This document shows positions 1 through 41,789 of a stretch of 41,789 nucleotides of DNA, piece after piece; position 1 is the stretch's first letter, and each line of letters opens with the position of its first letter. The translations under genes were made by a program, and so were the position numbers. Under the pieces are notes generated by a model, which searched no databases, had not been told where the DNA came from, and saw only the letters and a list, made by a program, of their open reading frames with translations. Source of the DNA: Spirochaetota bacterium (GTDB lineage: Bacteria; Spirochaetota; B62-G9); NCBI GenBank assembly GCA_003645695.1, contig QNBN01000002.1, positions 1 to 41,789 on the forward strand, given 5' to 3'.

Positions 1-648
1 CCCATGGAAATGATAACGAAGGATAATAAAATAACAGGCTTTGATATTGATTTAATTAAATTCATATCTGAGAAATCTAATTTTGACATCAATATAATTC
101 CTGTAATTAAAGAGAATTTGATTTACGGATTGATTGATGGAACTTACAACATTGTTATATCAGGAATAACATTTTCAACAGAACTCAAAACAAAGTATCC
201 TGATGTATTATTCAGTAAACCATACCTCAAAATAGGTGACGTTATAGTAATATCTGAAGATTTCTATAATTTTAAAGGGATCTCTAATTAAACGGGGAAA
301 ACTGTAGGAATTAAAAATAACTCGACTGCTGAAGAAGTATTGAAAAAATATCCAAAAATTAAGATTACAAAGTATAAAAGAATATCAAATGCCTTTACAG
401 ATTTAGCTAGAAATAAGATTAGTGCTGTTGTTACAGATCTACCAATTGCAGCCCAGTTTGTATATTACAATGATGAGTACAAAGGTATATTTAAAATAGT
501 CAATATCCCATTAACAAAAAAAGAGTATGTAATAGCTGTTAATAAATCGAACCAGGAACTTCTAAAAAAGATCAATTCTTCAATCAATCTGCTTGAAAAA
601 AGTGGTGAACTCAACAACTTGATCATAAAATGGTTTTTTAAAAAATGA
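1..648 (+). pseudogene. Periplasmic amino-acid/solute-binding protein (SBP family 3). 5' end lies outside the window, and the frame is interrupted by an in-frame TAA at 289-291.
   Basis: ORFs 4-291 and 340-648 share one frame. Reading through the TAA gives a continuous SBP_bac_3-like sequence (GFDIDL..., ISGITFS..., FSKPYL..., N*TGKTVGIKNNS, VVTDLPIA, KWF). The frame is already open from base 1. TAA is one substitution from TTA (Leu). Confidence 0.6.
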
Positions 649-1661
649 CAAATCCTACTTGCTTAAAAAATTTAAAATGGAAATTAATACTAATAACTAT
701 TCTATTTTTTATTGTTCTTTTTTTTTCATCGTGCAAATCAAAAAAGATAGAGATAACCAGAACAACCCTCTCAATGGGGACATTTGTTCAGATTGATATT
801 GTAACTAATATTAAATATGAGGAAAAGGCCAATTCGGTAATTGATGAATCTTTTAAACAAATTAAAAAATATGATGCTGAGTTTGATTACAGAAAAAAGG
901 GTGATTTAAATCGATTTAATAGAGATAGCATAATTGAAAAAGAAAAGTCTCCACAACTTTTCAATCTTATTCAAAAATCTATAATTATTGCAAAATTAAC
1001 CAATGGTGCATTTGATCCTACAATTTATCCACTTGTCAAACTGTGGGGTTTTGATGATGGGCATCCGGTATTACCATCAGTCGATGAAATAAAAAGGGCA
1101 TTAAAGAATGTGAATTATAGGAAAGTAAAGATAGTAAATTATAAAATTACAAAACCATCCAGTATAAAACTGGATTTAAGCGCAATTGCAAAAGGTTACA
1201 TTGTAGATTTGACAAGTAGATATATTAAATCCAAAGGGTTTACAAATTTTTTAATTAATGCTGGTGGTGATATTTTTGTTAGCGGCTTTAACAAAAAGGG
1301 AGAAAAATGGAAAATTGCTATTCAAGATCCATTTAACCCAGATAAATATTCAGGCATATTAAATATAACGAACTCTTCTGTTGTAACATCCGGAGATTAT
1401 GAAAACTTCTTTATTAAGGACGATAAAAAATATTGTCATATTCTTAATCCAAAAACTGGTTATCCTCCCTTTAATATGCATAGTGTTACAATAATATCTG
1501 AGGAGACCTCCTTTTCCGATGCAGTGGCTACAGCCGTCTTTGTAATGGGTCCGGATAAGGGTTTTAATTTTCTAAAGAATAACAACATTAGAGGCCTATT
1601 AATCTTTACAGACCAAAATAAAAAAGTAATTTATAAGGCAACAAATAATTTCTGGGAATAA
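645..1661 (+). CDS. apbE: ApbE-family FAD:protein FMN transferase, predicted lipoprotein
   Basis: ApbE-like motifs (TLSMGT, FDPTIYPLVKLWGF, AKGYIVD, INAGGDI, TSGDYENFF, HILNPKTGYP). N-terminal signal peptide with lipobox-like FFSSC. ATGA start/stop overlap with the upstream ORF. Confidence 0.8.
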   Translation: MTNPTCLKNLKWKLILITILFFIVLFFSSCKSKKIEITRTTLSMGTFVQIDIVTNIKYEEKANSVIDESFKQIKKYDAEFDYRKKGDLNRFNRDSIIEKEKSPQLFNLIQKSIIIAKLTNGAFDPTIYPLVKLWGFDDGHPVLPSVDEIKRALKNVNYRKVKIVNYKITKPSSIKLDLSAIAKGYIVDLTSRYIKSKGFTNFLINAGGDIFVSGFNKKGEKWKIAIQDPFNPDKYSGILNITNSSVVTSGDYENFFIKDDKKYCHILNPKTGYPPFNMHSVTIISEETSFSDAVATAVFVMGPDKGFNFLKNNNIRGLLIFTDQNKKVIYKATNNFWE

Positions 1662-1696
1662 AGATAATTATATTATTCAATATATTGAAGGTAACC

Positions 1697-2230
1697 TCAA
1701 ATAATAAATAATTTTGCGGAGCTAAATATTAATGGGGAAATTACTACAATAAATTGTAATGTTATAATAAGCATATCATATCGATGTAAATTAACTTTTG
1801 GCATATTGATATCTCTGATCCTATTTATTTCTTTCTGAGATTCTTTCAATGAATTTACAAGAAACCTTACAATTCTTCTCTTAAGTTTCTCTTGATAATT
1901 GGATTTTCTTCCTTTAAAAAAGATTTTCATATTAGCATATGATATTTTAAACAGTTTAAACACATAAAAAATTAGAAGGATAAAATCTATTTTTTCTTTC
2001 TTGCCAAATAAATCTTTTCTCCAAAACTTTAAACTCTTCAGTGCAGAGATTATCTGTTTTTCATCAAAACCTTCTGTTAGTAAAAAACTCATAATGTATA
2101 ATTCAATAACAATGCCTGAGTAATATACACCTCTCTTTAGTCCCTGCATAATAAAATAGAAGGGTCCAATATTAAAAAGGATCTTGCCGCTTCCATGCAT
2201 GAAATTTATTACCATAATAAACAATATCAA
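1697..2230 (-). CDS. Polytopic membrane protein, tentatively CbiQ/EcfT-like. True 5' end uncertain, since the frame stays open up to 2434.
   Basis: Hydrophobic helices followed by a basic amphipathic segment. Sits directly downstream of rplQ, where ecf genes lie in many bacteria. The canonical A-x-x-x-R-G motifs are not clear. The track start is a TTG that would remove about 65 hydrophobic in-frame codons. Confidence 0.4.
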   Translation of the reverse strand: MILFIMVINFMHGSGKILFNIGPFYFIMQGLKRGVYYSGIVIELYIMSFLLTEGFDEKQIISALKSLKFWRKDLFGKKEKIDFILLIFYVFKLFKISYANMKIFFKGRKSNYQEKLKRRIVRFLVNSLKESQKEINRIRDINMPKVNLHRYDMLIITLQFIVVISPLIFSSAKLFII

Positions 2231-2421
2231 AGGTATTATTGCTATTAATCTTTTAAATAGACCTCTGCACGTAACTTTTTTTATAAATAGAAAAGAGCAA
2301 AAAATTACTACAGGTTCTAGTAAAATGATCAGGATATTTTTAATAATTAGCGAGGATAATGCGAATATAATAGTATTAATGATAATAGATAATGGAGTGA
2401 TAATTTTTTTATTATTATTTT

Positions 2422-2790
2422 CTATTTTTTCTCCTCAACTTCAACCAGCTCTATAATAGACATTTCAGCTCCATCCCCAAGTCTATTTCCCATTTTAATA
2501 ATTCTTGTATAACCCCCATTTATATTCTTATATCTGGGAGCAATTTCGTCGAATAGTTTTGCTACAATATCCCTATCCTTAATTTTTTTCATAACGATTC
2601 TTTTGTTATGAAGAGTATTCTCCTTTGCCCTTGTAATTATTTTTTCACAATACCTTCTGAGCTCTTTTGCTTTAGGAGTAGTTGTTTTAATTCTTTCATG
2701 TCTTAAAAGCGAGGTTACCATATTAGAAAACATTGCTTTTCTATGCTCTTTATCACGGTTAAGTTTTCTTCCCTTTTTTAGATGTCTCAT
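2422..2790 (-). CDS. rplQ: 50S ribosomal protein L17
   Basis: [24 protein letters not shown]... is a typical L17 N-terminus. Located just after rpoA. Confidence 0.95.
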
Positions 2791-2792
2791 TT

Positions 2793-3830
2793 TTATGACT
2801 CCACTTCATTTTTAGACAATTTTTTTTCTAAGTACTCTTTCATCCCAAGGCTTAAACCAAACTCTGCAAGCTTTTCTTTGATTTCCTGTAATGATTTTTT
2901 TCCGAAATTTTTAGTTTTTGAAATCTCTTCCTCAGTCAACATCGCAAGGTCACCTATCGTTTTTACATTGATGTTTCTCAAACAGTTCGAGGATCTCACA
3001 GAAAGCTCAAGTTCTTCAACAGGAGTATTTAATATTGTCTTAAGTTTTTCGAGCTCTTCATCAACACTTTCTTCCTCATCCTCGAACTCTTCATTAAAGT
3101 TTATAAAATGCATAAGATAATCTTTTAAGATCTTTGCAGCATCGGCAACAGCATCTTCCGGCATAATACTACCATCTGTCCATACTTCAAGGATAAGCTT
3201 ATCATAGTCGCCACGCTGTCCCACCATCGCATTCTCTATCCTGAAGTTGCATTTTTTAATTGGTGTAAAAATTGCGTCAATAGGTATTGTTCCTATGGTT
3301 TCGATATTTTCCATATTTTTCTCAGCAGGAACATACCCTCTCCCTCGATTTATCTGTAATTCAATATGGACTTTACTGTCTTCTGCAAAACTTGCGAGAT
3401 GAAGATCAGGGTTAAGCACAGTTACATTGTTATCAACTTGAAGATCTGCTGCTTTTAACTCATTTTTCCCTTCTCTATCTATAGATATTACCTTGGTATC
3501 CGATTCATCGTTTAGCTTCAATCTTACATTTTTTAGATTAAGTATAAAATCTATCGTATCCTCGATCATTCCTGGAATATTATCAAACTCATTCGTTATC
3601 ATCTTCATGCTGTCTGTTTCAGGATCATAAGCTTCGACTCTTATCGCAACTATTGCGTAACCCTGCAATGCAGAAAGTAGAACTCTTCTCAATGAATTAC
3701 CCAATGTTGTACCATAACCTCTTTCCAATGGGCTGGCTATTATTCTTCCATATTCATTATTCTTTTCTTCATGCTCTATTATAAGTGAACGAGGCCTTTT
3801 CATCCCTTTTAAGAGATTTCTATGCGGCAT
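2793..3830 (-). CDS. rpoA: DNA-directed RNA polymerase subunit alpha
   Basis: 345 aa with alpha NTD and CTD signatures ([14 protein letters not shown]; [14 protein letters not shown]). AAGGAG RBS upstream. Confidence 0.97.
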
Positions 3831-3850
3831 TTTTTACTAGCTCCTTAAGC

Positions 3851-4160
3851 ATTTATGGTTTTATTCATTAAAATTATGTCAAATTCCAGCACTTTAAATT
3901 AAGTAAGCGTTCAATAATCCAAAGCGTTAAATGGTATAATGTTCATTTTAATCATAAAATTCAACAATAATCAAAACTCTTTACAATATATAATCCTAAA
4001 TGTTTTCAAATTCCAAATATTAAATCTAAACTACTGTTCTTTTTTTTCTTTAGCATCTTTTTTAAAAGTGCTAATCCACCTTTTACCTTTTAATACCAAT
4101 ATTTTTGGTTATTTAGAATACTAATATCCAATAATATTTAAATCTAATTTCTTATATAGA
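3851..4160 (+). repeat. Intergenic repeat family, copy E (plus orientation, with a unique insert of about 190 nt), filling the rpsD-rpoA spacer
   Basis: 3851-3874 is an exact 24-mer reverse-complement match to 21664-21687. AATATTTAAATCTAATTT (in 4132-4150) is an exact 18-mer match to copy A. Confidence 0.6.
3873..3881 (-). promoter_or_regulatory. Candidate extended -10 box (TGACATAAT) for rpoA, inside the left end of repeat copy E
   Basis: Minus-strand TGACATAAT about 40 nt upstream of the rpoA ATG. It is positionally homologous to the TGTTATAAT upstream of rpsT in repeat copy C. Confidence 0.35.
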
Positions 4161-4787
4161 TTACTTAGAATACAATTCAACTATAAGCTGTTCGTTTACC
4201 GGCAGATCTATTTCTTCTCGTTTTGGTACGTATAAAAAGCGACCCTTTAAATTGTCGGCATCCACCTCTATCCAGGGAACAGTACCAATTCGCGATACAT
4301 TCTTTAAGCTTTCAAGAATCGCTATCATTTTTTTACTTTTATCTTTAACTTCTATTTCATCATTTTCTCTGACAAGGTATGATGGGATATCAACCTTTTT
4401 TCCATTCACCAGTATATGCCCATGCCTAATTATCTGTCTTGCCATTTTACGGGATTGTGCAAAATGCATCCTATAAACAACATTGTCCAACCTTTGTTCC
4501 AAAAGCATCAACAGAATTTCACCAGTAACACCCTTTTTTCTCGAAGCAATCTCAAAGTACCTTTTAAACTGCTTCTCAAGAAGACCATAATATCTCTTTA
4601 CCTTCTGTTTTTCTCTCAATTGTAATCCATACTCCGAAAGCTTACTTCTCCTCCTTGGTAATTGTCCTGGTGGTGTTCTTCTTTTCACCATTGGGCATTT
4701 ATTTGAAATACATCTCTCACCCTTCAACATTAATTTAATACCCTCTCTTCTACAAAGCCTGCAGGAAGGTCCTAAATATCTTCCCAT
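4161..4787 (-). CDS. rpsD: 30S ribosomal protein S4
   Basis: [16 protein letters not shown]... with an S4 zinc-ribbon-like N-terminus. Start moved to the ATG at 4787, 9 nt after a GGAGG. The track's TTG lies inside the RBS. Confidence 0.95.
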
Positions 4788-4878
4788 ATATAATTCCTCC
4801 AAATTGTTTTGAATATCCTACATCCATATCTTATTTATATCAAATTAATAATGATTAAGATATATATATTGAAGATTT

Positions 4879-5271
4879 TTATACTCTTCTTCTTTTTCTT
4901 GGTCTGCAACCATTATGTGGGATCGGAGTTACATCCTTAATTAGATTAATTTTTAATCCGACTGCCTGTAATGTTCTTATTGCTGATTCTCGACCAGCAC
5001 CAGGCCCCTTTACATATACATCAACCTCTCTAAGGCCATGCTCCATGGCTTTTTTTGCTGCATCTTCAGCAGTAACCTGAGCAGCAAATGGTGTGCTTTT
5101 TTTGGCCCCTTTAAAGTCAAGACTCCCTGCACTTGACCATGAAATTGCATTTCCGTGTTTATCGGTTATTGTTATTATAGTATTATTAAAGGTGGACTGT
5201 ATGTGAGCAATCCCACTTGCAATATTTTTCTTTTCTTTCTTTTTAGTTCTCGTCTTTTTTGCTTTTGCCAC
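4879..5271 (-). CDS. rpsK: 30S ribosomal protein S11
   Basis: S11 signature ([18 protein letters not shown]...[13 protein letters not shown]). GTG start with GAGGAG RBS. Confidence 0.95.
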
Positions 5272-5283
5272 TTTTAAACTCCT

Positions 5284-5652
5284 CTACTTTTTCTTTCCTG
5301 CAACCGTCTTTTTCTTACCTTTTCTGGTTCTGGCATTCGTTCTTGTTCTTTGACCTCGAACTGGTAAACCTCTTCTATGCCTTAATCCCCTATAGGATCC
5401 AATATCTATCAATCGTTTTATATTCATAGATACTTCTGTTCGAAGTTCACCCTCGATTTTATAATTATTTTCTATAATATTTCTTAAAGTAGCAATCTCT
5501 TCGTCAGATAGCTCGTGAACTCTCTTGTCGGGACTTATGTTTGCCTCTTTGATAATTTTCTCAGCTATTGTCCGTCCTATTCCATAAATATAGGTCAACG
5601 CTATAACAACTCTTTTATTATTGGGTATATCAACACCAGCAATTCTTGCCAT
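5284..5652 (-). CDS. rpsM: 30S ribosomal protein S13
   Basis: [26 protein letters not shown]... is canonical S13. Confidence 0.95.
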
Positions 5653-5663
5653 ATTCCTCTCCC

Positions 5664-5777
5664 TTACTTTTGTCTCTGTTTGTGTTTAGGGTTTTCACAT
5701 ATAACCCTCACAACACCTTTTCTCTTTATTACTTTGCATTTATCACAAATTGGCTTGACGGAAGCTCTCACTTTCAT
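5664..5777 (-). CDS. rpmJ: 50S ribosomal protein L36 (not in ORF track)
   Basis: Hand translation gives [37 protein letters not shown]. Located between infA and rpsM as expected. Confidence 0.9.
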
Positions 5778-5843
5778 TTTACACTCCATTAACCTGTAGT
5801 TTTACTTTCTAAAATATACTAACAAAGCTTAAAACATTTTTTT

Positions 5844-6062
5844 CTATTTAAATCTATAAGTGATCCGACCTCTATTTAAATCATAAGGTGATAGTTCTAC
5901 ACTTACTTGATCACCAGGTAATATCCTGATATTATGCATTCTCATTTTACCAGAGATATGAGCCAATACTATATGTCCATTTTCTAACTCAACTTTGAAC
6001 ATTGCATTAGGAAGAGGTTCTTTTACTATACCTTTTACTACAATCGCCTCTTCTTTAGACAT
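5844..6062 (-). CDS. infA: Translation initiation factor IF-1
   Basis: 72 aa S1-like fold sequence ([20 protein letters not shown]...RITYRFK). Confidence 0.95.
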
Positions 6063-6223
6063 TTAGACTCCTCTGTTTATTTATTTTACCTTGCAATTAA
6101 TTTTAGTTAATTATAAAAATCTTGCTTACCAATTTAACATTCCTTGCTTGAACAGTAATTTTCTGAGCAATAAGATAATCATTTTATAAAATATTGTCAA
6201 TTACAGCAAATATATGATAACTA

Positions 6224-7546
6224 TTAAAGATTTCTACCTCTTAATTTGCCACCCTTTTTCATAAATCCGTCATAATGCCTCATTAACAAATGAGATTCGA
6301 TTTGTTTCATTGTATCAAGATCTACACCTACCATAATCAAAAGCGATGTACCTCCCATTAGATAAGCCATTGTAGAAGGTAGGTTCAACCATCTCTGAAT
6401 AATAGTTGGTATCAGGGCTATCGTAGCTAAAAAGATTGATCCCGGCAAAACAATCCTATTTAAAACTCTCTGTAAGTATGACGATGTATTAGCCCCTGGT
6501 CTAATTCCAGGTATATAGCCACCAACCTTTTTTAAGTTATCTGCTATATCTATAGGGTTTAACTGTATCTGTGTATAAAAGTATGTGAAAAATATGATTA
6601 ACAGTGCATAAAGTACTAGGTACAATGGCCTTCCAGGAGTTAGTAAAACAGCGAGTTTTTGTAATGCAGGAACTCTAGGCCCCAACGACTGAGCTATCTG
6701 AGCAGGAAATAACAGTACTGAAGAAGCAAAAATAATCGGTATAACTCCGGATGGATTGATCTTCAATGGAAGGTATGTTGATTGGGCTGAATAAACTTTT
6801 CTTCCTATTACCTTCTTAGCGTGCTGGATAGGTATTCTTCTCTGTCCCTGTTGCTCTATTATGACCAGCATAACTATAATAACAAACACCCCAAAGGATA
6901 CAATCAATGTAACCGGGTTTAGTTCACCAACCTTCATCTGATCATAAACCTGTTTGGCAGCAACCGGTATCCTAGCTACTATACCAATAAAGATAAGAAG
7001 TGATATACCGTTTCCTATACCCCTCTCTGTTATCTGCTCACCTATCCACATAAGAAAAATAGTACCTGAGGTAACAGCAACTACCGCTGTTATTGTAAAC
7101 CCGATACCTGGATTAACGACAACATCCGGTCTTGATTTCATAAAGACCGTCAATGCATATCCCTGTATTCCTGCGATTCCTACAGTTGATACTCTAGTTA
7201 TTTGCTGTATCTTTTTTCTACCAACTTCACCCTCTTTTGAAAGTCTTTCAAGTGCAGGGATAACAACGGTAAGTAATTGTAAAATAATGGAAGCAGATAT
7301 ATAGGGCATTATTCCCAGTGCAAATAGAGTGAATCTTCTTAATGCACCACCAGCAAATAGATCTAGAAATCCCAGCAATCCTCCCGTTTGGCCAAATAGC
7401 CTCTCAAGTGCTACTGCATTTATACCTGGGACCGGAATATAAGCACCGATCCTAAAAATAACTATCATCAATAAAGTAAAAAATATTCTTTTTCGTAGCT
7501 CCGGTATTCTAAATATGTTCAAAGCTATATTACTATCCAGTGCCAT
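6224..7546 (-). CDS. secY: Preprotein translocase subunit SecY
   Basis: 440 aa polytopic protein with SecY motifs (GIMPYISASII, WIGEQITERGIGNGISL). Follows rplO. Confidence 0.96.
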   Translation of the reverse strand: MALDSNIALNIFRIPELRKRIFFTLLMIVIFRIGAYIPVPGINAVALERLFGQTGGLLGFLDLFAGGALRRFTLFALGIMPYISASIILQLLTVVIPALERLSKEGEVGRKKIQQITRVSTVGIAGIQGYALTVFMKSRPDVVVNPGIGFTITAVVAVTSGTIFLMWIGEQITERGIGNGISLLIFIGIVARIPVAAKQVYDQMKVGELNPVTLIVSFGVFVIIVMLVIIEQQGQRRIPIQHAKKVIGRKVYSAQSTYLPLKINPSGVIPIIFASSVLLFPAQIAQSLGPRVPALQKLAVLLTPGRPLYLVLYALLIIFFTYFYTQIQLNPIDIADNLKKVGGYIPGIRPGANTSSYLQRVLNRIVLPGSIFLATIALIPTIIQRWLNLPSTMAYLMGGTSLLIMVGVDLDTMKQIESHLLMRHYDGFMKKGGKLRGRNL

Positions 7547-8002: not shown

Positions 8003-8199
8003 TTTTTATCCCTCTCTACAATAACCAAATGATTAACCTTTGTTATCATACCTCGAATAGAAGATGTATCTTTATGTATCCTGATTTTATTTAATTTTCT
8101 CAGTCCAAGCGCTCTAACTATTCTTCTCTGTTTTTCCGGTATCCCTATTAAACTTCTAACAAGTTTTACTTTAATCGTTCCTTCTTTTGTTTTTGACAT
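7999..8199 (-). CDS. rpmD: 50S ribosomal protein L30
   Basis: 66 aa with IKVKLVRSLIGIPEKQRRIVRALGLRK, typical L30. Confidence 0.92.
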   Translation of the reverse strand: MSKTKEGTIKVKLVRSLIGIPEKQRRIVRALGLRKLNKIRIHKDTSSIRGMITKVNHLVIVERDKK

Positions 8200-8204
8200 T
8201 TTCT

Positions 8205-8726
8205 TTATCCTAATAAATCTTTAAATGTTTTTCCCCTAAACTCAAGTATATTGTTTATATCCATTAGTTTATTTAATCCATTGAGCGTTGCATATACCAC
8301 ATTAATGGCATTATTTGAACCAAGCGATTTTGTTAAAATGTCCTTGATCCCCGCCAGCTCAACAACAGCCCTAACTGGACCACCAGCTATTATTCCCGTA
8401 CCTGGTGAAGCAGGTTTCATTACCACTTTACCGCTCTTAAACTCCCCAATTACTTCATGTGGTATGGTATTACCCTTTAAATTTATCTTTACAATATCTC
8501 TCTTAGCTTTTTCAACAGCCTTTCTTATAGCTTCGGATACTTCATTCGCCTTTCCATATCCAATTCCCACTCTACCATTCTTATCGCCAACAACAACAAG
8601 AGCACTAAAGCTAAACCTACGGCCACCTTTAACGACTTTTGCAACCCTGTTAAGCTTCACTAACTTTTCATTAAACTCTTCTTTTTCTTCATTAACACTA
8701 TTTAGATTTGCAACTGAATCTGCCAA
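8205..8726 (-). CDS. rpsE: 30S ribosomal protein S5
   Basis: [24 protein letters not shown] is the S5 signature. TTG start 6 nt after AAGGAG. Confidence 0.95.
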
Positions 8727-8749
8727 CTTATACTCCTTATTTAATAAAT

Positions 8750-9088
8750 TTACATTTTAATACCAGCTTTCCTTACTCCGTCAGCCAAAGCTTTTACTAG
8801 ACCGTGATAAACATATCCATTTCTATCAAACACGGCTTTTTCAATTTTTAATTCTAATAACTTCTTGCCTAAATCTTCACCAACTTTTGAGGCACCATCT
8901 ACTGTTTTCTTTTCCTTTAATTTTAAGTTTGATGATGTACACAACGTATGCCCTCTGTCATCATCTATTGCCTGAACATAGATATATCTATTACTTTTGA
9001 ATACTGTAATTCTTGGTTTCTCTGCTGTACCATATATTTTTTTCCTGATTCCCCTCTTACGTCTCAATCTTCTTTCAATCTTATTCAT
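8750..9088 (-). CDS. rplR: 50S ribosomal protein L18
   Basis: [19 protein letters not shown]...[17 protein letters not shown], typical L18. Confidence 0.95.
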
Positions 9089-9144
9089 TCCTGTAATCCT
9101 TATTAATCAGTTATATTCTCAAATGGCAATTTTTATTCAGCTTC

Positions 9145-9696
9145 TTACTTAACCCCTGCTTTACCCGCTTTTCTCCTTATTCTCTCATCCTGGTACATAA
9201 CACCTTTCCCCTTGTATGGCTCTGGGGGTTTAAATTTTCTTATATTAGCTGCAACCTGACCAACCAATCGCTTATCTATTCCACTTACAATTATTGTTGT
9301 AGGATCAGGTATTTCTATATCTATCCCTTCCGGAACTGGAAAATTAACTGGATGAGAAAATCCAAGGTTTAAAACAAGGGTTTTACCCTGTAATTGTGCC
9401 TTATATCCAACTCCAACTATTTTAAGCGCTTTAGAATACCCGGTATGCACCCCAACGATTAAATTATTTATTAATGATCGGGTTAGCCCATGAAACGCAT
9501 CTGATTTTTTATTTTCAGGATTGTGATTTATAACTTCAATTTGATGTTCTGATATTTTAATCTCTCCATCAAAGTTTTCAAAATTCAAATCCATCTGAAG
9601 TTTCCCTTTTGGTCCCTCTACAACTATCTTTGGAGGTGAATACTCTACCTTAACTCCCTCTGGTATTAAAATAGGAAGACTACCAATCCTTGACAT
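9145..9696 (-). CDS. rplF: 50S ribosomal protein L6
   Basis: MSRIGSLPILIPEGVKV...GYSKALKIVGVGYKA, typical L6. Confidence 0.95.
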   Translation of the reverse strand: MSRIGSLPILIPEGVKVEYSPPKIVVEGPKGKLQMDLNFENFDGEIKISEHQIEVINHNPENKKSDAFHGLTRSLINNLIVGVHTGYSKALKIVGVGYKAQLQGKTLVLNLGFSHPVNFPVPEGIDIEIPDPTTIIVSGIDKRLVGQVAANIRKFKPPEPYKGKGVMYQDERIRRKAGKAGVK

Positions 9697-9749
9697 TAAA
9701 TATCTCCATTATATCATTATTATTTAACAATATATTTGTATAAATTAAT

Positions 9750-10148
9750 CTACCATATATAACAAATTACTTCACCACCTACATTGCTCTCTCTAGCCTT
9801 TTTATCAGTTAACACACCCTTTGATGTAGAAATAATAGAAGTTCCATATCCATTGTAAACCCTTGGTATTTGATTTTTCTTTTTATATACCCTCAGACTT
9901 GGCCTGGAAACTCTCTTTAAATCATGTATTACAGATTCTCCGTTTGGTGTATATTTTAAGTAAATCCTAATATAGGATTTTCTACCTTCTTCAATAAGTT
10001 TAAAATTCTTTATATAGCCTTCATTTTTTAGTATTTTAATGATTTCTAATTTTAATTTACTAGAAGGTATATCAACTTTTTCTTTTTTTACTCTATTAGC
10101 ATTTCTTATTACCGTAAGCATATCGGCAATTGGATCTGATAAGCCCAC
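9750..10148 (-). CDS. rpsH: 30S ribosomal protein S8
   Basis: [13 protein letters not shown]...GGEVICYIW, typical S8. GTG start after GAGGTG. Confidence 0.95.
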
Positions 10149-11812: not shown

Positions 11813-12079
11813 CTATTTGGCTTTTTCAACTATTTTAACGAACTTCCAACTTTTCTCTTTACTAATAGGTCTGGTTTCAACAAAACTTATTACATCTCCG
11901 ATATTGCATTCATTATTCTCATCGTGGACTTTATATTTCTTAGTCCTTTTAACATATTTTTTATATTTAGAGTGTTTTTTAAGTGTTTCAACTACCACCA
12001 CAACAGTTTTATCCATCCTATTACTCACAACCACCCCATAATGCATTCTTTGTTTTGTTTCGACCTTTATATCACTCAA
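11813..12079 (-). CDS. rpsQ: 30S ribosomal protein S17
   Basis: [39 protein letters not shown], typical S17. TTG start 7 nt after GGAG. Confidence 0.94.
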
Positions 12080-12148
12080 TTCAAAACTCCATCTATCAAA
12101 ATTTCTCTAAAAGCCTTAGAGTATTTAAGATTTTCCTTTTATTTTATA

Positions 12149-12355
12149 CTATTTATTTTCTTTTCTCATTCCCAATTCATACTCTCTTAAAATAGTGTTA
12201 ACCCTTGCAATTTCTCTTCGTGTTTCCCTTATTTTAAGTGTATTTTCAAGTTGACCCATTAGTTTATTAAATCTAAAGACTCTGTAATCTTTAATCAACT
12301 TCTCTCTATATTCATTTAATTCATCAACAGTCATTTCTTTTAAGTTTGCTTTCAT
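12149..12355 (-). CDS. rpmC: 50S ribosomal protein L29
   Basis: MKANLKEMTVDELNEYREKL...RREIARVNTIL, typical L29. Start set to the ATG at 12355, 7 nt after GGAG. Confidence 0.92.
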   Translation of the reverse strand: MKANLKEMTVDELNEYREKLIKDYRVFRFNKLMGQLENTLKIRETRREIARVNTILREYELGMRKENK

Positions 12356-12400
12356 ATACAAGCTCCACTATTTAATTCCAATTATGATCCATATCTATCT

Positions 12401-12814
12401 CTATATTGCCATTCGACTAACAAATTTTGTCTTTATAGGTAACTTATGTGATGCCAATCTAAACGCTTCTCTTGCAACATCCTCTCTTACACCCGCAACC
12501 TCAAACATAATTCTTCCAGGTTTTACTACTGCCACCCAGTATTCAGGCATTCCCTTGCCCTTGCCCATACGAGTTTCTGCAGGTTTTTTGGTATATGGCA
12601 TGTCAGGAAATATCCTTATCCAGACCTTTCCTCCTCTTTTAATATATCTGGTTAAAGCAACTCTAGCTGCCTCTATCTGCCTGTTAGAAATCCATGCCGG
12701 CTCAAGTGCTGATAGTCCATATTCACCAAATGCCACGGTATGTCCCCTTGTAGCAATTCCTCTCATTCTTCCTCTTTGCTTTTTTCTATACTTTACTCTG
12801 TTGGGTTGTAACAT
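12401..12814 (-). CDS. rplP: 50S ribosomal protein L16
   Basis: [19 protein letters not shown] is canonical L16. Confidence 0.96.
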
Positions 12815-12863
12815 ATCAAATCCCCTGGTTCAATTTGATAATCAATATTTTATCGATTGTAAA

Positions 12864-13547
12864 TTATACAGCAGCAGGTTTTTTCTTTCTAATTAAAACA
12901 CCCGCATCTTGTTGTTTTTCTTTTTTAAATACTTCACCTTTATATATCCATACTTTAACACCGATTGTCCCAAAGGTTGTTTTTGCCTCAGCAAATCCAT
13001 AATCAATATCAGCCCTAAAAGTATGAAGTGGAACCATACCTTCCATATAATGTTCAGTTCTTGCCATTTCAGCTCCGCCCAATCTACCAGCTACAGAAAT
13101 TTTGATTCCCCTTGCCCCAGCCTGCATAGCTGAAGATATTGCCTTTTTCATAGCCCTTCTAAAAGAAATACGACCTTCAAGCTGTCTTGCTACTCCTTGA
13201 GCAACCAACTCAGCATCAAGTTCTGGAACTTTGATTTCCTTTATCTTTATCTGTATTGCTTTATCAGTATATTTGGAAATCTCTTTACTCAGATTCTCAA
13301 CCTCTACTCCTTTTCTTCCTATCACTATACCAGGCCTTGCTGTATGTATAATGACATTCATCTTTTCAGGATACCTGATTATTTCAACATGAGATACCTC
13401 ACCATTCTTTAGCTTATTCTTTACGTGAGTTCTTATTTTAAGGTCTTCTTGCAAATTCTTCGCGTAATCTTTTTTAGAATACCATCTTGATTCCCATGAT
13501 CTTATAATGCCAAGCCTTAGACCTATTGGGTTAACTTTTTGACCCAT
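12864..13547 (-). CDS. rpsC: 30S ribosomal protein S3
   Basis: [23 protein letters not shown] is canonical S3, with KH and S3-C regions. Confidence 0.96.
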
Positions 13548-13560
13548 CTAATCCTCCACT

Positions 13561-13908
13561 TTATTTCTCTATTTCTTTACCTGAAACAACAACTTTAATA
13601 TGGCAGGTCCGTTTTCTTATACGATCTGCCCTACCCCTTGCTCTGGGGATCCATCTTTTTAGAGTTGGTCCCTCATTAACAATGATGCTTTCAATCTTTA
13701 TCGTTTCTTCATCTATATTTTTTGCTTTTTCCATAAGATTCGAAACTGCCGATTTAATAACTTTTCTAAGTGATCTAGCCCCTCTAGCTGTTATTATACC
13801 AAGAGCTGCATCTGCTTCTCTGAAAGGCATTTCTTTAATGACTTTGCTGTATTTATTTACCTTTCTTGGTGAAACACGAACATATTTTGAAATAGCCTGA
13901 GCTATCAT
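13561..13908 (-). CDS. rplV: 50S ribosomal protein L22
   Basis: AQAISKYVRVSPRKVN...RARGRADRIRKRTCHIKVVV, typical L22. Confidence 0.95.
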   Translation of the reverse strand: MIAQAISKYVRVSPRKVNKYSKVIKEMPFREADAALGIITARGARSLRKVIKSAVSNLMEKAKNIDEETIKIESIIVNEGPTLKRWIPRARGRADRIRKRTCHIKVVVSGKEIEK

Positions 13909-13919
13909 TTCAGTCCCCT

Positions 13920-14201
13920 TTATCTAACTCTCGAAGATTTTTCAGATCCCGCATGACCTTTAAATGTTCTTGTAGGAGCAAACTCTCCTAACTTATGCCC
14001 TACCATATTCTCTGTCACATAAACAGGGAAAAACTTTTTACCGTTGTAAACATTAAATGTCTGACCTACCATTTCAGGGAATATCGTTGATCTTCGCGAC
14101 CATGTTTTTATAATCTTCTTCTCATTCTTCTTGTTTAACTCAATAACTTTTTTATAAAGCTTTTTATCAATATAAGGTCCTTTTTTTATCGATCGAGACA
14201 A
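13920..14201 (-). CDS. rpsS: 30S ribosomal protein S19
   Basis: [11 protein letters not shown]...[33 protein letters not shown], typical S19. TTG start after GGAGG. Confidence 0.95.
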
Positions 14202-14211
14202 TTACTCCCTC

Positions 14212-15039
14212 CTATTTCTTTCTTCTGCTTATAATATATTTATCAGATAGTTTTTTCTTCTTTCTAGTTTTATACCCTTTAGTTGGTTTACCCCATGGTG
14301 TAACAGGATGCCTTCCACCAGAAGTTCTTCCCTCTCCACCTCCATGCGGATGATCAACGGGATTCATAGCTACGCCTCTTACCTTAGGCCTTCTGCCAAG
14401 CCATCTTGACCTACCCGCTTTACCTAATGAAACATTTAAATGATCTTGATTACCTAGCTGCCCAACTGTTGCATAACATCTTTCATTTACTATTCTTGTT
14501 TCGCCGGATGGCAACCTCAATATACAATGCTTACCTTCTTTTCCAACTATTTGAGCAAAAGCCCCAGCCGAACGTGCCATTTGCCCTCCTCTCCCAGGAT
14601 ACAGCTCAACATTGTGAACTATAGTACCCACCGGCATACTACCAAGCGGCATAGCATTACCAACTTTAACCTTGATAGATTCCCCTGCAATAATCTTATC
14701 ACCTATATTAAGACCTTCAGGGTGAAGTATATATCTTTTTTCCCCATCTAAGTAACTTACAAGTGCTATCCACGCACTTCTATTCGGATCATACTCTATG
14801 GTTACTACTTTAGCTTCTATATTCCTCTTATCTCTTTTAAAATCAATAATTCTATATAGTTTTTTTGCACCACCACCTCTTCTCCTCAGTGTGATACGAC
14901 CATAGTTATTTCTTCCGCTTATCCTTTTTTTGCCTATTGTTAAAGGTTTATATGGCTCTTCATCTGTAACCTTATCCTTTACTACTACTGAAAAAAACCT
15001 TCTTCCCGGTGTTATAGGTTTATACTTCTTTATTGACAT
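14212..15039 (-). CDS. rplB: 50S ribosomal protein L2
   Basis: 275 aa with GRNNYGRIT...[14 protein letters not shown], the L2 signature. Confidence 0.97.
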
Positions 15040-15068
15040 AGTTTAATTTCTCCACTGGTTAATATTAA

Positions 15069-15353
15069 CTAAACGCTTTCAAAAAGCTCAATTTTTTGGC
15101 CTTTTTTTATTGTCACTATTGCCTTTTTCCAAGATGATGTATAACCCAGCTTGTATCTCTCCCTCTTCTTCTTTCCTCTAACATTTATTATATTGCAGGA
15201 TACAGGATCTACATCAAAGATCTCCTTAACCTGCTGCATAATTTCTTTTTTATTCGCTCTTCTATCAACCTTGAAACAGTATTTACCGTCTTCCTGCATT
15301 GCTGTTGATTTCTCTGTAATAATAGGATGTATGATAATATCTCCCTTTTTCAT
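15069..15353 (-). CDS. rplW: 50S ribosomal protein L23
   Basis: IIHPIITEKS...KKAIVTIKKGQKIE, typical L23. Start set to the ATG at 15353 after AGGTG. Confidence 0.93.
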   Translation of the reverse strand: MKKGDIIIHPIITEKSTAMQEDGKYCFKVDRRANKKEIMQQVKEIFDVDPVSCNIINVRGKKKRERYKLGYTSSWKKAIVTIKKGQKIELFESV

Positions 15354-15376
15354 GTTTAACACCTATCTATTTTTTT

Positions 15377-16027
15377 CTATGCCTTCTTTGTAGTTACCTT
15401 AGAATATTTTTCGTTGATACGTTTCACAGCACTTTCTGTCAAAATAAGCTGAGTTGAATAGTAAAGATCTTTGCTGTTTAATGTATCTGCATTATAGTAC
15501 ATGACCCATGGTATATTTTTTGATGCTCTCTTATTTAGCTCATTTATGTTATAGTCAATGAAAATAACCCTTTTTCTATCATCTTCATTCGTAAATCTAT
15601 TTGCGATAGAATAAAAATCCCTGGTTTTACTTGAATCAACTTTAAAATCTTCAACAACCTTTATTTTATTGTCCCTAAGTTTTTGAGATAGTATGGATTT
15701 TATTGACAACCTTCTCATTTTTTTTGGTAACTTGACGGTATAATCCCTCGGTTTCGGTCCAAATACCGTACCTCCACCTATCCAAACAGGACTTCTTCTG
15801 CTTCCAGCCCTTGCCCTACCTGTACCTTTTTGTCTCCATGGTTTTGCCCCACTTCCTGATACTTCCGATCTTCCTTTTGTACTTGCCGTTCCCTGCCTTT
15901 TATTAGCATGCTCAGCTTTTAAAGCATAGTAGATAACTGATTTATTAGGTTTGATTCCAAAAACATCATCACTGAGCTCTATTTGCCCTTTCTCATTACC
16001 ATTTATATCATATAACGTTACATTCAT
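15377..16027 (-). CDS. rplD: 50S ribosomal protein L4
   Basis: SGSGAKPWRQKGTGRARAGSRRSPVWIGGG is the L4 signature. The ATG at 16027 gives MNVTLYDINGNEKG, like other L4 N-termini. No convincing SD upstream. The track's GTG at 16039 is possible. Confidence 0.92.
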   Translation of the reverse strand: MNVTLYDINGNEKGQIELSDDVFGIKPNKSVIYYALKAEHANKRQGTASTKGRSEVSGSGAKPWRQKGTGRARAGSRRSPVWIGGGTVFGPKPRDYTVKLPKKMRRLSIKSILSQKLRDNKIKVVEDFKVDSSKTRDFYSIANRFTNEDDRKRVIFIDYNINELNKRASKNIPWVMYYNADTLNSKDLYYSTQLILTESAVKRINEKYSKVTTKKA

Positions 16028-16250
16028 TTTTTTACTCACATTTAAGAGAGATTGTTTTTTTACTAAATTATATTTAATTTTATAGGTTTTATTCTCCCCT
16101 ATATAATTTATCTTGCATATAACCTTACTTTGTAGGGGAAGTGAATTATAAATTGCTCTTTTTAAATATTTTTTAAATTAGTAGGAACTTAGCAATCCTA
16201 CAAGATATCAAAAATCAAAACTCAAAATTCAGCTTATATCTTACCGAAAA

Positions 16251-16559
16251 CTACTGCTTAATTTCTACATCCACCCCTGCTGGGAGTTCAAGTTTCATCA
16301 ATGCGTTTATTGTTTCACTTGTTGGGTTTATTATATCAATAAGTCTCTTATGCGTTCTCATTTCAAACTGTTCCCTCGATTTTTTGTTTACATGCGGAGA
16401 ACGCAGAACAGTAAACTTATTTATCTTAGTAGGTAGAGGTATAGGGCCTGAGACCTTAGCCCCGGCCCTTATTACCGCATTTACTATTGATTTTGCTGAT
16501 TGATCTATTAATTCGGCATCAAAAGCCCTTAATTTGACGCGTATTTTCTGAATATCCAT
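16251..16559 (-). CDS. rpsJ: 30S ribosomal protein S10
   Basis: [21 protein letters not shown]...[22 protein letters not shown] is canonical S10. Confidence 0.96.
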
Positions 16560-16567
16560 GATTACCC

Positions 16568-17758
16568 CTACTCAATAATTTCTGTTACTGCACCAGCGCC
16601 AACGGTACGTCCACCTTCTCTGATAGCAAACCTCATACCTTTTTCAAGAGCTACTGTGTGAATAAGCTCTATTTCCATCTCAATATTATCACCAGGCATT
16701 ACCATTTCTACCCCTTCAGGGAGTTTTATAACACCTGTGACATCGGTTGTTCTAATATAAATCTGTGGTCTGTATCCACTAAAGAAAGGTGTGTGTCTTC
16801 CACCTTCTTCCTTTGTCAATACATAAACCTGTGCTTTAAACTTCTTATGCGGAGTTATGGAACCTGGCTTTGCCAGAACCTGTCCTCTTTCAACCTCTTC
16901 CCTTTTAATTCCTCTTAAGAGAACACCAATGTTATCCCCGGCCTGACCCTCATCAAGGATCTTCCTGAACATTTCAATACCGGTAGCAACAGTTTTCACA
17001 GTTGGTCTTATCCCAACAATTTCTACTTCATCATTAACATGGATGACCCCCCTTTCAACTCTACCTGTTACAACTGTACCTCTTCCAGAAATTGTAAAAA
17101 CATCCTCTATCGGCATGAGGAAAGGTTTATCAATCTCTCTCTTTGGTTCAGGGATATAAGTATCAAGAGCATCCAAAAGTTCTTGTATACTCTTTGTTGC
17201 TTCAGGATCCGTTGGGTTCTCCATCGCTTTTAATGCACTACCTTTAATAACAGGCACTTCTTCTCCAGGAAACTCATACTCTGTTAGAAGATCTCTTACT
17301 TCCATTTCAACAAGCTCAAGTAGCTCAGGATCATCTACTCTGTCAATTTTATTCAGATAAACGATCATAGCAGGGACACCAACCTGCCTTGCTAAAAGTA
17401 TATGTTCCCTTGTTTGAGCCATTGGTCCATCATCGGCAGCCACAACAAGAATAGCACCATCCATCTGCGCTGCACCGGTGATCATATTCTTTACATAATC
17501 AGCGTGACCGGGGCAGTCAACATGTGCATAATGCCTTTTATCAGTCTCATACTCTACATGCTGAGTAGCAATAGTAATACCTCTTTCTCTTTCCTCTGGA
17601 GCATTGTCAATCTCTTCAAACTTTTTAGCCTCTGATAAACCCTTATTTGCCAGATACAGGGTAATAGCAGATGTAAGTGTGGTTTTACCATGATCAACGT
17701 GTCCAATTGTACCCACATTTACATGAGGCTTTGTCCTTTGGAATTTCTCTTTTGCCAT
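16568..17758 (-). CDS. tuf: Elongation factor Tu
   Basis: 396 aa with [18 protein letters not shown] and NKID G-motifs. GAGGAGG RBS. Confidence 0.98.
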
Positions 17759-17933: not shown

Positions 17934-17997
17934 ATAGACAATCAGATTTAATGTTTTAAAAAATTAACGTTGTCTATTCGTTTTATACCCTATAAAG
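17934..17997 (-). repeat. Partial copy (D) of the intergenic repeat: right-hand module plus hairpin, in the fusA-tuf spacer
   Basis: The 16-mer GGTATAAAACGAATAG (minus strand) is identical to copy A (plus 17974-17989 vs 21525-21540). It is followed by an ATAGACAA / TTGTCTAT 8-bp hairpin (17970-17977 with 17934-17941). Confidence 0.55.
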
Positions 17998-20606: not shown

Positions 20607-20620
20607 TTTATCACCTCATA

Positions 20621-20652
20621 CAAAAAATTAGCCGGTTTGCGCAGAAACCGGC
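20621..20652 (-). terminator. Intrinsic-terminator-like hairpin abutting the rpsG RBS
   Basis: Minus-strand RNA is GCCGGUUU-CUGCGC-AAACCGGC followed by UAAUUUUUUG. An 8-bp GC-rich stem in otherwise AT-rich DNA. The U-tract ends 14 nt before the rpsG GTG. Confidence 0.6.
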
Positions 20653-20653
20653 C

Positions 20654-20700
20654 CCACCAAGGGACCTATCCAACCCATGTTGGTGGTTTCACCTAGGTTA
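20654..20700 (-). promoter_or_regulatory. GC-rich structured leader element upstream of rpsG (hairpin CCACCAA/UUGGUGG with a possible pseudoknot)
   Basis: Minus-strand ACCUAGGUGAAACCACCAACAUGGGUUGGAUAGGUCCCUUGGUGG. The 7-bp stem is 20654-20660 with 20680-20686. Loop UAGGU can pair with upstream ACCUA. It directly adjoins the terminator hairpin. Confidence 0.45.
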
Positions 20701-20785
20701 CTTACAGTTAATGTTATTTTTATAATACGTATTTAACTGCTATTCTATTTTAAGTTAAATATTTACTAAATGAATTACCCCCATT

Positions 20786-20814
20786 TATATACTAAATCTT
20801 TTATGAAATGGCAA
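20786..20814 (-). promoter_or_regulatory. Candidate promoter inside the rpsL-rpsG spacer (TTGCCA-17-TATATA)
   Basis: Hexamers with 17-nt spacing on the minus strand, about 85 nt upstream of the GC-rich element. AT-rich context makes false positives likely. Confidence 0.3.
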
Positions 20815-20984
20815 CAATTTAGTTTATTAATTACAATATTATTTAAAAACCTCTAATATCTTTAGGATTTAAAACTTAAAGGATTGAAGTAAGACAAATA
20901 TATAACAGAAACACTATACTTTAGACATAAATTATCTGACAATAAGATATATAAGGTTCCTAAAAAAAACAACTAAATATTTAT

Positions 20985-21416: not shown

Positions 21417-21477
21417 TATTTTAATTAAAGTTTTGTTAATCAATGTTTATTGAGCCAAAGTCCTTATTCAATGCTTA

Positions 21478-21687
21478 TAGAATAGGTAAATACACTTTCA
21501 ATCATAATAAAAGACAAGTTTTGCCTATTCGTTTTATACCTATAAAAAATTAGATTTAAATATTCTTTGATATTTCGGTATTCTAATTAATCATAAATAC
21601 TGTTATTAAAAAATAAAATATTTTGCTCCACTAGAACAGAGAATGCTGGTACCAAAAACCGTGATTTTAATGAATAAAACCATAAAT
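21478..21687 (-). repeat. Intergenic repeat family, copy A (minus orientation), starting at the rpoC stop codon
   Basis: Matches copies E, B, C and D module by module (see findings): 24-mer and 18-mer exact matches to E, ACGGTTTTTG/GTACCAG/ATTCTCTGTT shared with B, 16-mer shared with D. Confidence 0.65.
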
Positions 21688-37715: not shown

Positions 37716-37925
37716 ACTTATGATTTAATTTATTAAAATTATAACATTTTGTACCAGCACTTTCTGGACTAGAGAAGTAATATCTTTTGTTTTTTTTACC
37801 AGATTTTATATATATTAAAGATAATATAAAGGATCAACCTTTAATTTCTATATTTCTTACAGGTATAAAACAAATAGGTACGCTAATACTATGAATTTTT
37901 CTTGAAAGTTTGTTTGCCTATTAAC
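37716..37925 (+). repeat. Intergenic repeat family, copy C (plus orientation), filling the divergent rpsT/uvrC spacer
   Basis: Shares with copy A, in the same order: TTATG.TTT.ATT.ATTAAAAT, TTTTGTACCAGCA.T.TCTG, AGGTATAAAAC(A/G)AATAGG, and TTGAAAGT.T.TTT.CCTATT. Confidence 0.6.
37738..37746 (-). promoter_or_regulatory. Extended -10 box (TGTTATAAT) for rpsT, inside the left end of repeat copy C
   Basis: Perfect TGnTATAAT on the minus strand about 55 nt upstream of the rpsT start. Positionally homologous to TGACATAAT upstream of rpoA. Confidence 0.5.
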
Positions 37926-41677: not shown

Positions 41678-41789
41678 TAAGGTTTTATTCATTTAATTAA
41701 CGGTTTTTGTACCAGAATTCTCTGTTGTCTTTAATAATAGTATTTAAGTTCTAATTAGTAATGTTAAAATATTCAAGGTTACTTAAAAG
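41678..41789 (+). repeat. Intergenic repeat family, copy B (plus orientation), truncated by the window end, upstream of tatA
   Basis: AAGGTTTTATTCATTTAATTAACGGTTTTTGTACCAGAATTCTCTGTTG...TTAATAATAGTATTTAAGTTCTAATTAG aligns with copy A across the left and middle modules. Confidence 0.6.

Follow-up and report, generated by a model that had tools for sequence, protein, structure and literature searches.

The window, i.e., the whole stretch of 41,789 nt analyzed here, carries a ribosomal supercluster on its minus strand. The upstream part of the cluster runs nusG-rplK-rplA-rplJ-rplL-rpoB-rpoC-rpsL-rpsG-fusA-tuf-rpsJ, and after rpsJ it continues with rplD-rplW-rplB-rpsS-rplV-rpsC-rplP-rpmC-rpsQ, followed by the spc and alpha genes to rplQ. 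Within this series, rpsJ is separated from tuf by a gap of 8 nt and is thereby tied to the upstream str-operon genes, while rplD is followed by the L23 and L2 genes on the same strand. The features at and around the rpsJ–rplD junction are:

16568-17758, minus strand: tuf (EF-Tu), an ORF with the Pfam domains GTP_EFTU, D2 and D3
16251-16559, minus strand: rpsJ (S10), 102 aa, Pfam Ribosomal_S10 (E = 3e-38), gene 1 of the S10 operon
16028-16250, minus strand: non-coding rpsJ–rplD spacer at the usual rplC site, 223 nt
15377-16027, minus strand: rplD (L4) from its ATG, 216 aa, Pfam Ribosomal_L4 (E = 4e-67)
15377-16039, minus strand: rplD from an alternative GTG start
11813-15362, minus strand: rplW-rplB-rpsS-rplV-rpsC-rplP-rpmC-rpsQ in canonical order, from ORFs and the Pfam labels on identical contigs

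The arrangement resembles the canonical E. coli-type S10 operon in that rpsJ stands first and the nine genes normally found after rplC, rplD to rpsQ, retain their order and orientation on one strand. Its placement within the canonical supercluster secE-nusG-rplKAJL-rpoBC-str-S10-spc-alpha is likewise the same. It differs in that the second gene, rplC, is gone and is replaced by a non-coding spacer of 56–225 nt, both in the window and in six related lineages.

The initial annotation had stated that rplC is missing between rpsJ and rplD and that the 41.8-kb window contains no L3-like ORF, and both statements were borne out. A tblastn comparison of the E. coli and B. subtilis L3 proteins with the window gave a best E-value of 0.7, and when all six-frame segments of the window were searched with a spirochaete L3 profile and with a broad one (hmmsearch --max), the best E-value was about 0.9, at less than 5 bits. 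In positive controls, the broad profile scored 305–332 bits on five L3-carrying loci; on about 175 kb (redundant) of loci from the organism and its relatives, it gave no hit. Sequence to the left of the window, reached on an ENA contig, contained no L3 either. No spacer segment was among the best L3-HMM matches listed, which themselves reached only E of about 0.9, and a pseudogene remnant of rplC was rejected since the spacer holds no L3-like similarity and the spacers of relatives are as short as 56 nt. The absence of rplC from the rpsJ–rplD junction and from the whole window is real.

Conspecific contigs were recovered by exact-protein look-up. Independent assemblies contributed at least nine contigs that encode the identical rpsJ protein, and the exact 216-aa rplD product is on five contigs. 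The junction of rpsJ and rplD across 223 or 224 nt is present in ERZ27227322, ERZ2433807, ERZ23491052, ERZ23491060, GCA_053938965.1, SRR32938009, JGI 3300014913 and ERZ27227317; the tally of at least nine independent same-species assemblies includes SRR6301444, which covers the rplD side only. Three SNPs and one length variant of the A-run distinguish the same-species spacers, which therefore come from distinct strains rather than from one propagated error. To the left of window position 1, positions 1-7500 of the ERZ27227322 contig k141_1348197 carry archaeal genes beyond a DDE transposase (exosome Rrp4, SBDS, proteasome alpha, RNase P Rpp14 and p30), and the contig is probably a metagenomic chimera with a repeat or transposase as its joining point.

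To extend the comparison beyond the species, L4 homologs were searched, which returned 117 clusters at 57–93% identity before a drop to 53–54%. Some of these clusters carry the NCBI labels ‘Spirochaetes bacterium DG_61’ or ‘Spirochaetota bacterium’. Genomic context was checked in 7 of the approximately 117 clusters, spread over the identity range, and in addition to the window the following relatives proved to be rplC-less:

L114-116: L4 identity 93%, rpsJ–rplD gap 225 nt
L015/016: L4 identity 78%, gap 56 nt
L017/018: L4 identity 66%, gap 110 nt
L031: L4 identity 64%, gap 132 nt
L032: L4 identity 64%, gap 126 nt
L117/118 (23 contigs): L4 identity 57%, gap 103 nt

For each of the 117 clusters (at least 57% identity), the identity to a verified rplC-less L4 exceeds that to every canonical L4. 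The L4 of L017/018 is identical, over the aligned length, to the Guaymas MAG protein RKY01326.1, and the rplC-less lineage as a whole includes ‘Spirochaetes bacterium DG_61’ and MAGs from hydrothermal and marine sediments. The junction had initially been described as a feature of one genome; with six further lineages sharing it, it is instead an old, clade-wide trait of a deep, uncultured lineage of Spirochaetota.

The outgroups of the comparison with related genomes, which the initial annotation had proposed, retain the canonical order. The next lineage, L019 (54% L4 identity), has rpsJ-rplC-rplD and groups with mainstream spirochaetes at 69–74% L4 identity; the canonical order was also found in the spirochaete loci L020, L026, L111 and L033, rplC occupies its canonical place in Leptospira, and in locus L013 L3 lies immediately 5' of L4. 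A metagenome scan based on the clade L4 alignment and universal motifs returned at least 2 clade loci and at least about 78 unrelated ones, the latter serving as canonical controls, whereas a scan of genome contigs with the L4 of the window, using over-specific peptide patterns, returned two distant loci only. In about 70 unrelated metagenome loci, L3 stands immediately before L4 wherever the upstream sequence suffices. Altogether, L3 is kept upstream of L4 in about 75 of about 75 non-clade loci, directly adjacent in all except L105. In that metagenome locus (positions 8007-10001) rplC is kept and about 2 kb separate it from rplD. The Saccharimonadales MAG locus L014 (7604-9306) is like the clade in that the block is broken, but it too keeps rplC, behind an insertion of about 1.7 kb between rpsJ and rplC that carries small membrane-like ORFs. 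The breaks in L014 and L105 are insertions, in contrast to the deletion in the clade. Given rplC-less junctions throughout the clade and the canonical order in the next lineage and the outgroups, one ancestral deletion is the economical reading.

The spacer itself measures 223 nt when counted from the rplD ATG and 211 nt from the GTG, and its GC content is 23.3% compared with 34.3% for the whole window. It contains no ORF of 20 aa or more. The initial description of 211–223 nt of AT-rich non-coding DNA is therefore in agreement with the gene calls, the GC content and the absence of an ORF. Rfam gave no match in the window at the gathering threshold, and at E-values up to 10 within 15900-16400 only chance matches to snoRNAs and sRNAs. 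The predicted RNA fold has a z-score of +0.17, no better than that of shuffled sequences, and neither Rfam nor this z-score points to an E. coli-type S10 leader recognized by L4. With the ORF, fold and Rfam tests all negative, a small ORF, a structured RNA and an Rfam family in the spacer were rejected. The spacer is 91.1% identical to that of the relative with 93% L4 identity, compared with about 90% at third codon positions of the flanking genes. Across the clade, spacers range from 56 to 225 nt and are unalignable between lineages. The two inverted repeats described in the initial annotation were found at the positions given there:

16181-16201, minus strand: inverted repeat GTAGGA-N9-TCCTAC, with no U-run after it and missing in other lineages
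16095-16139, minus strand: inverted repeat TCCCCTA-N31-TAGGGGA, part of the MFE structure, which the fold z-score does not support

Shuffled sequences reached the observed counts of inverted repeats in 25% of cases for 6-bp stems and 4.7% for 7-bp stems. Comparison of the window species with the 93% relative shows both stems invariant and the loops variable. The chance that all 26 stem positions remain unchanged at that divergence is about 9% (0.911^26), so the invariance of the stems is weak evidence. Neither hairpin clearly exceeds chance expectation, and their conservation stops at the genus. Judged by its sequence, the spacer looks like unconstrained leftover DNA.

All rplD homologs begin at the ATG at 16027. 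The A-run preceding this codon (16028-16033, minus strand) has six A in the window and seven in the same-species contig L010 and in L114, and this polymorphic A6/A7 tract is all that separates the weak Shine-Dalgarno from the start codon. Since the run is one base longer in L010 and L114, the GTG at 16039 is out of frame there. Both observations indicate that the ATG at 16027, and not the GTG at 16039, is the true start of rplD. The initiation region contains one candidate signal:

16034-16039, minus strand: weak Shine-Dalgarno-like GUGAGU followed by the A6 tract, just 5' of the rplD ATG

Nearly all neighboring genes of the cluster have a Shine-Dalgarno of the GGAG/GAGG type; rplD has only GUGAG and the A-tract. 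The GTGAGT is shared by L114 and L015, L117 and L031 have TGAG, and a (G/A)UGAG motif lies at a similar distance, 7–12 nt before the start, in five of the seven lineages. The earlier remark that rplD has no convincing Shine-Dalgarno stands relative to the GGAG/GAGG of its neighbors; a weak GUGAG/UGAG does recur in several members of the clade. In the outgroups, the rplC stop is at most 9 nt away from the rplD start, and the two genes overlap by as much as 4 nt; with rplC missing and a spacer in its place, rplD is left without such a tight junction. These features suggest a weak, uncoupled initiation of L4. The coding strand of the spacer showed neither a terminator-like hairpin followed by a U-run nor a sigma-70-like −35/−10 pair, and neither signal recurs across the seven spacers, where the promoter scan applied a consensus to AT-rich DNA and spirochaete promoters may differ from that consensus. 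Given the lack of such terminator and promoter signals and the spacer of only 56 nt in one relative, rplD and the genes downstream are most likely transcribed by read-through from tuf-rpsJ.

L3 is an early 50S assembly protein located near the peptidyl-transferase center and is required for 50S assembly. As a protein, uL3 is common to the three domains without exception, and we know of no free-living organism that does without it. On this ground, and in line with the initial annotation, the clade would have to encode L3 at another chromosomal site. We propose that a single excision removed rplC from the S10 operon in the ancestor of this deep Spirochaetota lineage, which would have left rpsJ beside rplD with only a short unconstrained sequence between them. 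L3 would be encoded elsewhere, either because the native gene moved or because a second copy existed before the operon copy was lost. Under this scenario, rplD and the downstream genes would be read through from the tuf-rpsJ unit, and L4 translation would initiate alone, from the weak GAG-type Shine-Dalgarno and A-rich leader rather than through coupling to rplC. We assign the combined reading (ancestral excision, L3 elsewhere, co-transcription with tuf-rpsJ and an uncoupled L4 start) a probability of about 0.8.

The L3 gene of the clade was sought in two database searches, each considering the best 120 of about 8000 matches (240 listed) and guided by a search in which the spirochaete L3 profile was run on cluster representatives at 50% identity. 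Among the best 120 of about 8000 matches to the L3 of L019, which were 63–95% identical, no clade L3 was present; these best 120 relatives of a mainstream spirochaete L3 form many small groups, with no large block the size of the clade. The listed relatives of L3 cluster P0259 contained no clade L3 either. The clade L4 is 50–60% identical to mainstream spirochaete L4, so the clade L3 probably ranks below the 120 matches listed and the outcome of the hunt says little. Four candidates were rejected. P0145 and P0125, chosen by AT-rich composition or NCBI label, belong to the canonical S10-L3-L4 of other spirochaetes, P0456, a compositional match, also lies in a canonical context, and the P0259 group is tiny and does not correspond to the 117-cluster clade. 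Pairing of the L3 and L4 hit lists by longest contig and accession range returned only an outgroup pair (144829 bp) and the pair of L4 cluster P0065 and L3 cluster P0131, in both of which the longest contig is 1504 bp. The latter match is probably a coincidence, since one such is expected among many short contigs, although it could represent a clade member with L3 adjoining L4. A separate feature was observed in P0259 (269 aa), P0415 (272 aa) and P0266/P0408 (307 aa), spirochaete-like L3 proteins that share an insertion of 60–100 aa at the same position, after about residue 68; they are AT-rich and occur on few contigs, and P0259 and P0266 came to light in the profile search of the cluster representatives.

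Several other explanations were weighed against the proposed excision. The initial annotation had offered an assembly or deletion artefact as the alternative, i.e., that rplC is truly present and was collapsed or deleted during assembly or binning. The window is indeed metagenomic material, and one conspecific ENA contig is visibly chimeric further left, with archaeal genes after a transposase. However, MEGAHIT (k141), SPAdes (NODE), JGI, Logan and an NCBI MAG all gave the same junction, the spacer showing SNPs between strains, and the same architecture recurs in the six other lineages, whose L4 identity is as low as 57%. An artefact is thereby refuted, its remaining probability being close to nil, which leaves the biological one of the two initial alternatives, a rare rearrangement. 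We also consider it improbable that the spacer is a functional element, such as a leader or attenuator that responds to L4, a small RNA replacing rplC or a newly arisen promoter, with the hairpins as its working parts. The unchanged stems beside variable loops, the marginally high count of 7-bp inverted repeats and a perfect TATAAT some 30 nt before the rplD ATG would all fit such an element, yet the spacer folds no better than chance, belongs to no Rfam family, diverges at the rate of synonymous sites and has no compensatory changes in the compared sequences. It is also reduced to 56 nt in one clade member, shares neither sequence nor hairpin with the more distant members, and lacks a −35/−10 pair on the coding strand. 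Moreover, E. coli-type ribosomal-protein leaders are, according to Fu et al. 2013 (PMC3616713), mostly restricted to Gammaproteobacteria.

The two remaining explanations concern the fate of L3 itself. As a variant of the preferred excision with L3 elsewhere, a foreign or duplicate rplC may have been gained at another site before the native operon copy was lost, in which case the L3 of the clade would fall outside the spirochaete L3 proteins. This xenologous displacement would account for the absence of a clade L3 from both the best 120 relatives of mainstream spirochaete L3, all at least 63% identical, and the listed P0259 relatives. The same absence is, however, equally expected if the L3 is merely 50–60% identical, as L4 is, because the best 120 of about 8000 matches would miss a vertically inherited L3 at that level; we regard displacement as a rather unlikely, if plausible, version of events. 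A genuine loss of L3, or its divergence beyond recognition, leaving ribosomes without canonical uL3, would likewise agree with the lack of L3 in about 175 kb (redundant) of clade loci and with the targeted searches, including the 240 listed homologs, which yielded no clade L3. Yet the region covered is the ribosomal supercluster, a few percent of the genome, the searches extended to the best-ranked matches only, and the universality of uL3 as an early assembly protein with no known free-living exception makes such a loss very improbable.

Known systems offer partial parallels. In cyanobacteria, plastids and archaea, rps10 is part of the str/tuf unit and L3 heads an operon of its own. The clade is similar in that rpsJ directly follows tuf (8 nt) and the cluster breaks right after rpsJ, but the separate operon of those organisms keeps L3 at the head of L3-L4-L23-L2, whereas here L4 heads the block and no L3 is present. 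Brown et al. are said to have reported in 2015 that L30, L9 or L1 is absent in groups of the Candidate Phyla Radiation; the L30 gene is encoded within the window. The likeness lies in a ribosomal gene missing from its expected site throughout a lineage and recognized from metagenome assemblies. The difference is that those are dispensable peripheral proteins that were truly lost, while L3 is a core assembly protein, for which relocation is far more likely than loss. No relocation of rplC, no rplC-less S10 operon and no account of the ribosomal cluster of this lineage was found described in the literature.

Together, these results establish the rplC-less junction as a real, old and lineage-wide variant of a very conserved operon, and a modestly surprising one to the specialist. 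Few gene orders in bacteria are as stable as the adjacency rpsJ-rplC-rplD, and the clade shows that even this one can be broken and kept broken. The removal of rplC provides a simple synapomorphy for an uncultured spirochaete lineage and a natural experiment in which L3 expression is uncoupled from that of L4, and it calls for caution in marker-gene and synteny pipelines that assume L3 in the cluster. The finding would be considerably more important if L3 proved foreign or absent; in the case of true absence, the peptidyl-transferase region would assemble without canonical L3.

Intergenic repeats were observed elsewhere in the window. The initial annotation had noted a spacer stretch resembling the window's repeat family, which was not upheld. 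The 18-mer in question, TATAGGGGAGAATAAAAC at 16086-16103, occurs only once in the window when up to 3 mismatches are allowed, and the best non-self match of the spacer to the window by blastn-short has an E-value of 0.11 and consists of low-complexity A/T. As the spacer does not significantly match the actual intergenic repeat family, it was rejected as a copy of that family. That family came to light through about 200 nt directly after the rpoC stop, which are present in the window and missing from L114, the relative with 93% L4 identity. This insert matches other intergenic sites of the window with blastn-short E-values down to 3e-8. The sites are:

about 21472-21686, minus strand: insert after the rpoC stop
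3852-3874 and 4088-4156: repeat family site
37718-37739 and 37852-37878: repeat family site
41681-41746: repeat family site
17974-17989: repeat family site

By its sequence features, the family looks like a small MITE-like intergenic repeat, and it is probably the repeat family that the initial annotation had in mind.

Another spacer of the supercluster, between rpsL and rpsG (20607-20984, minus strand, 378 nt), is 95.8% identical to that of the 93% relative and so better conserved than third codon positions (about 90%). At its end lie a GC-rich hairpin, GCCGGTTT...AAACCGGC (about 20631-20652), and a T-run, just before the rpsG Shine-Dalgarno. The spacer has no Rfam match and a fold z-score of only −1.5; it could be an attenuator or a regulatory leader.
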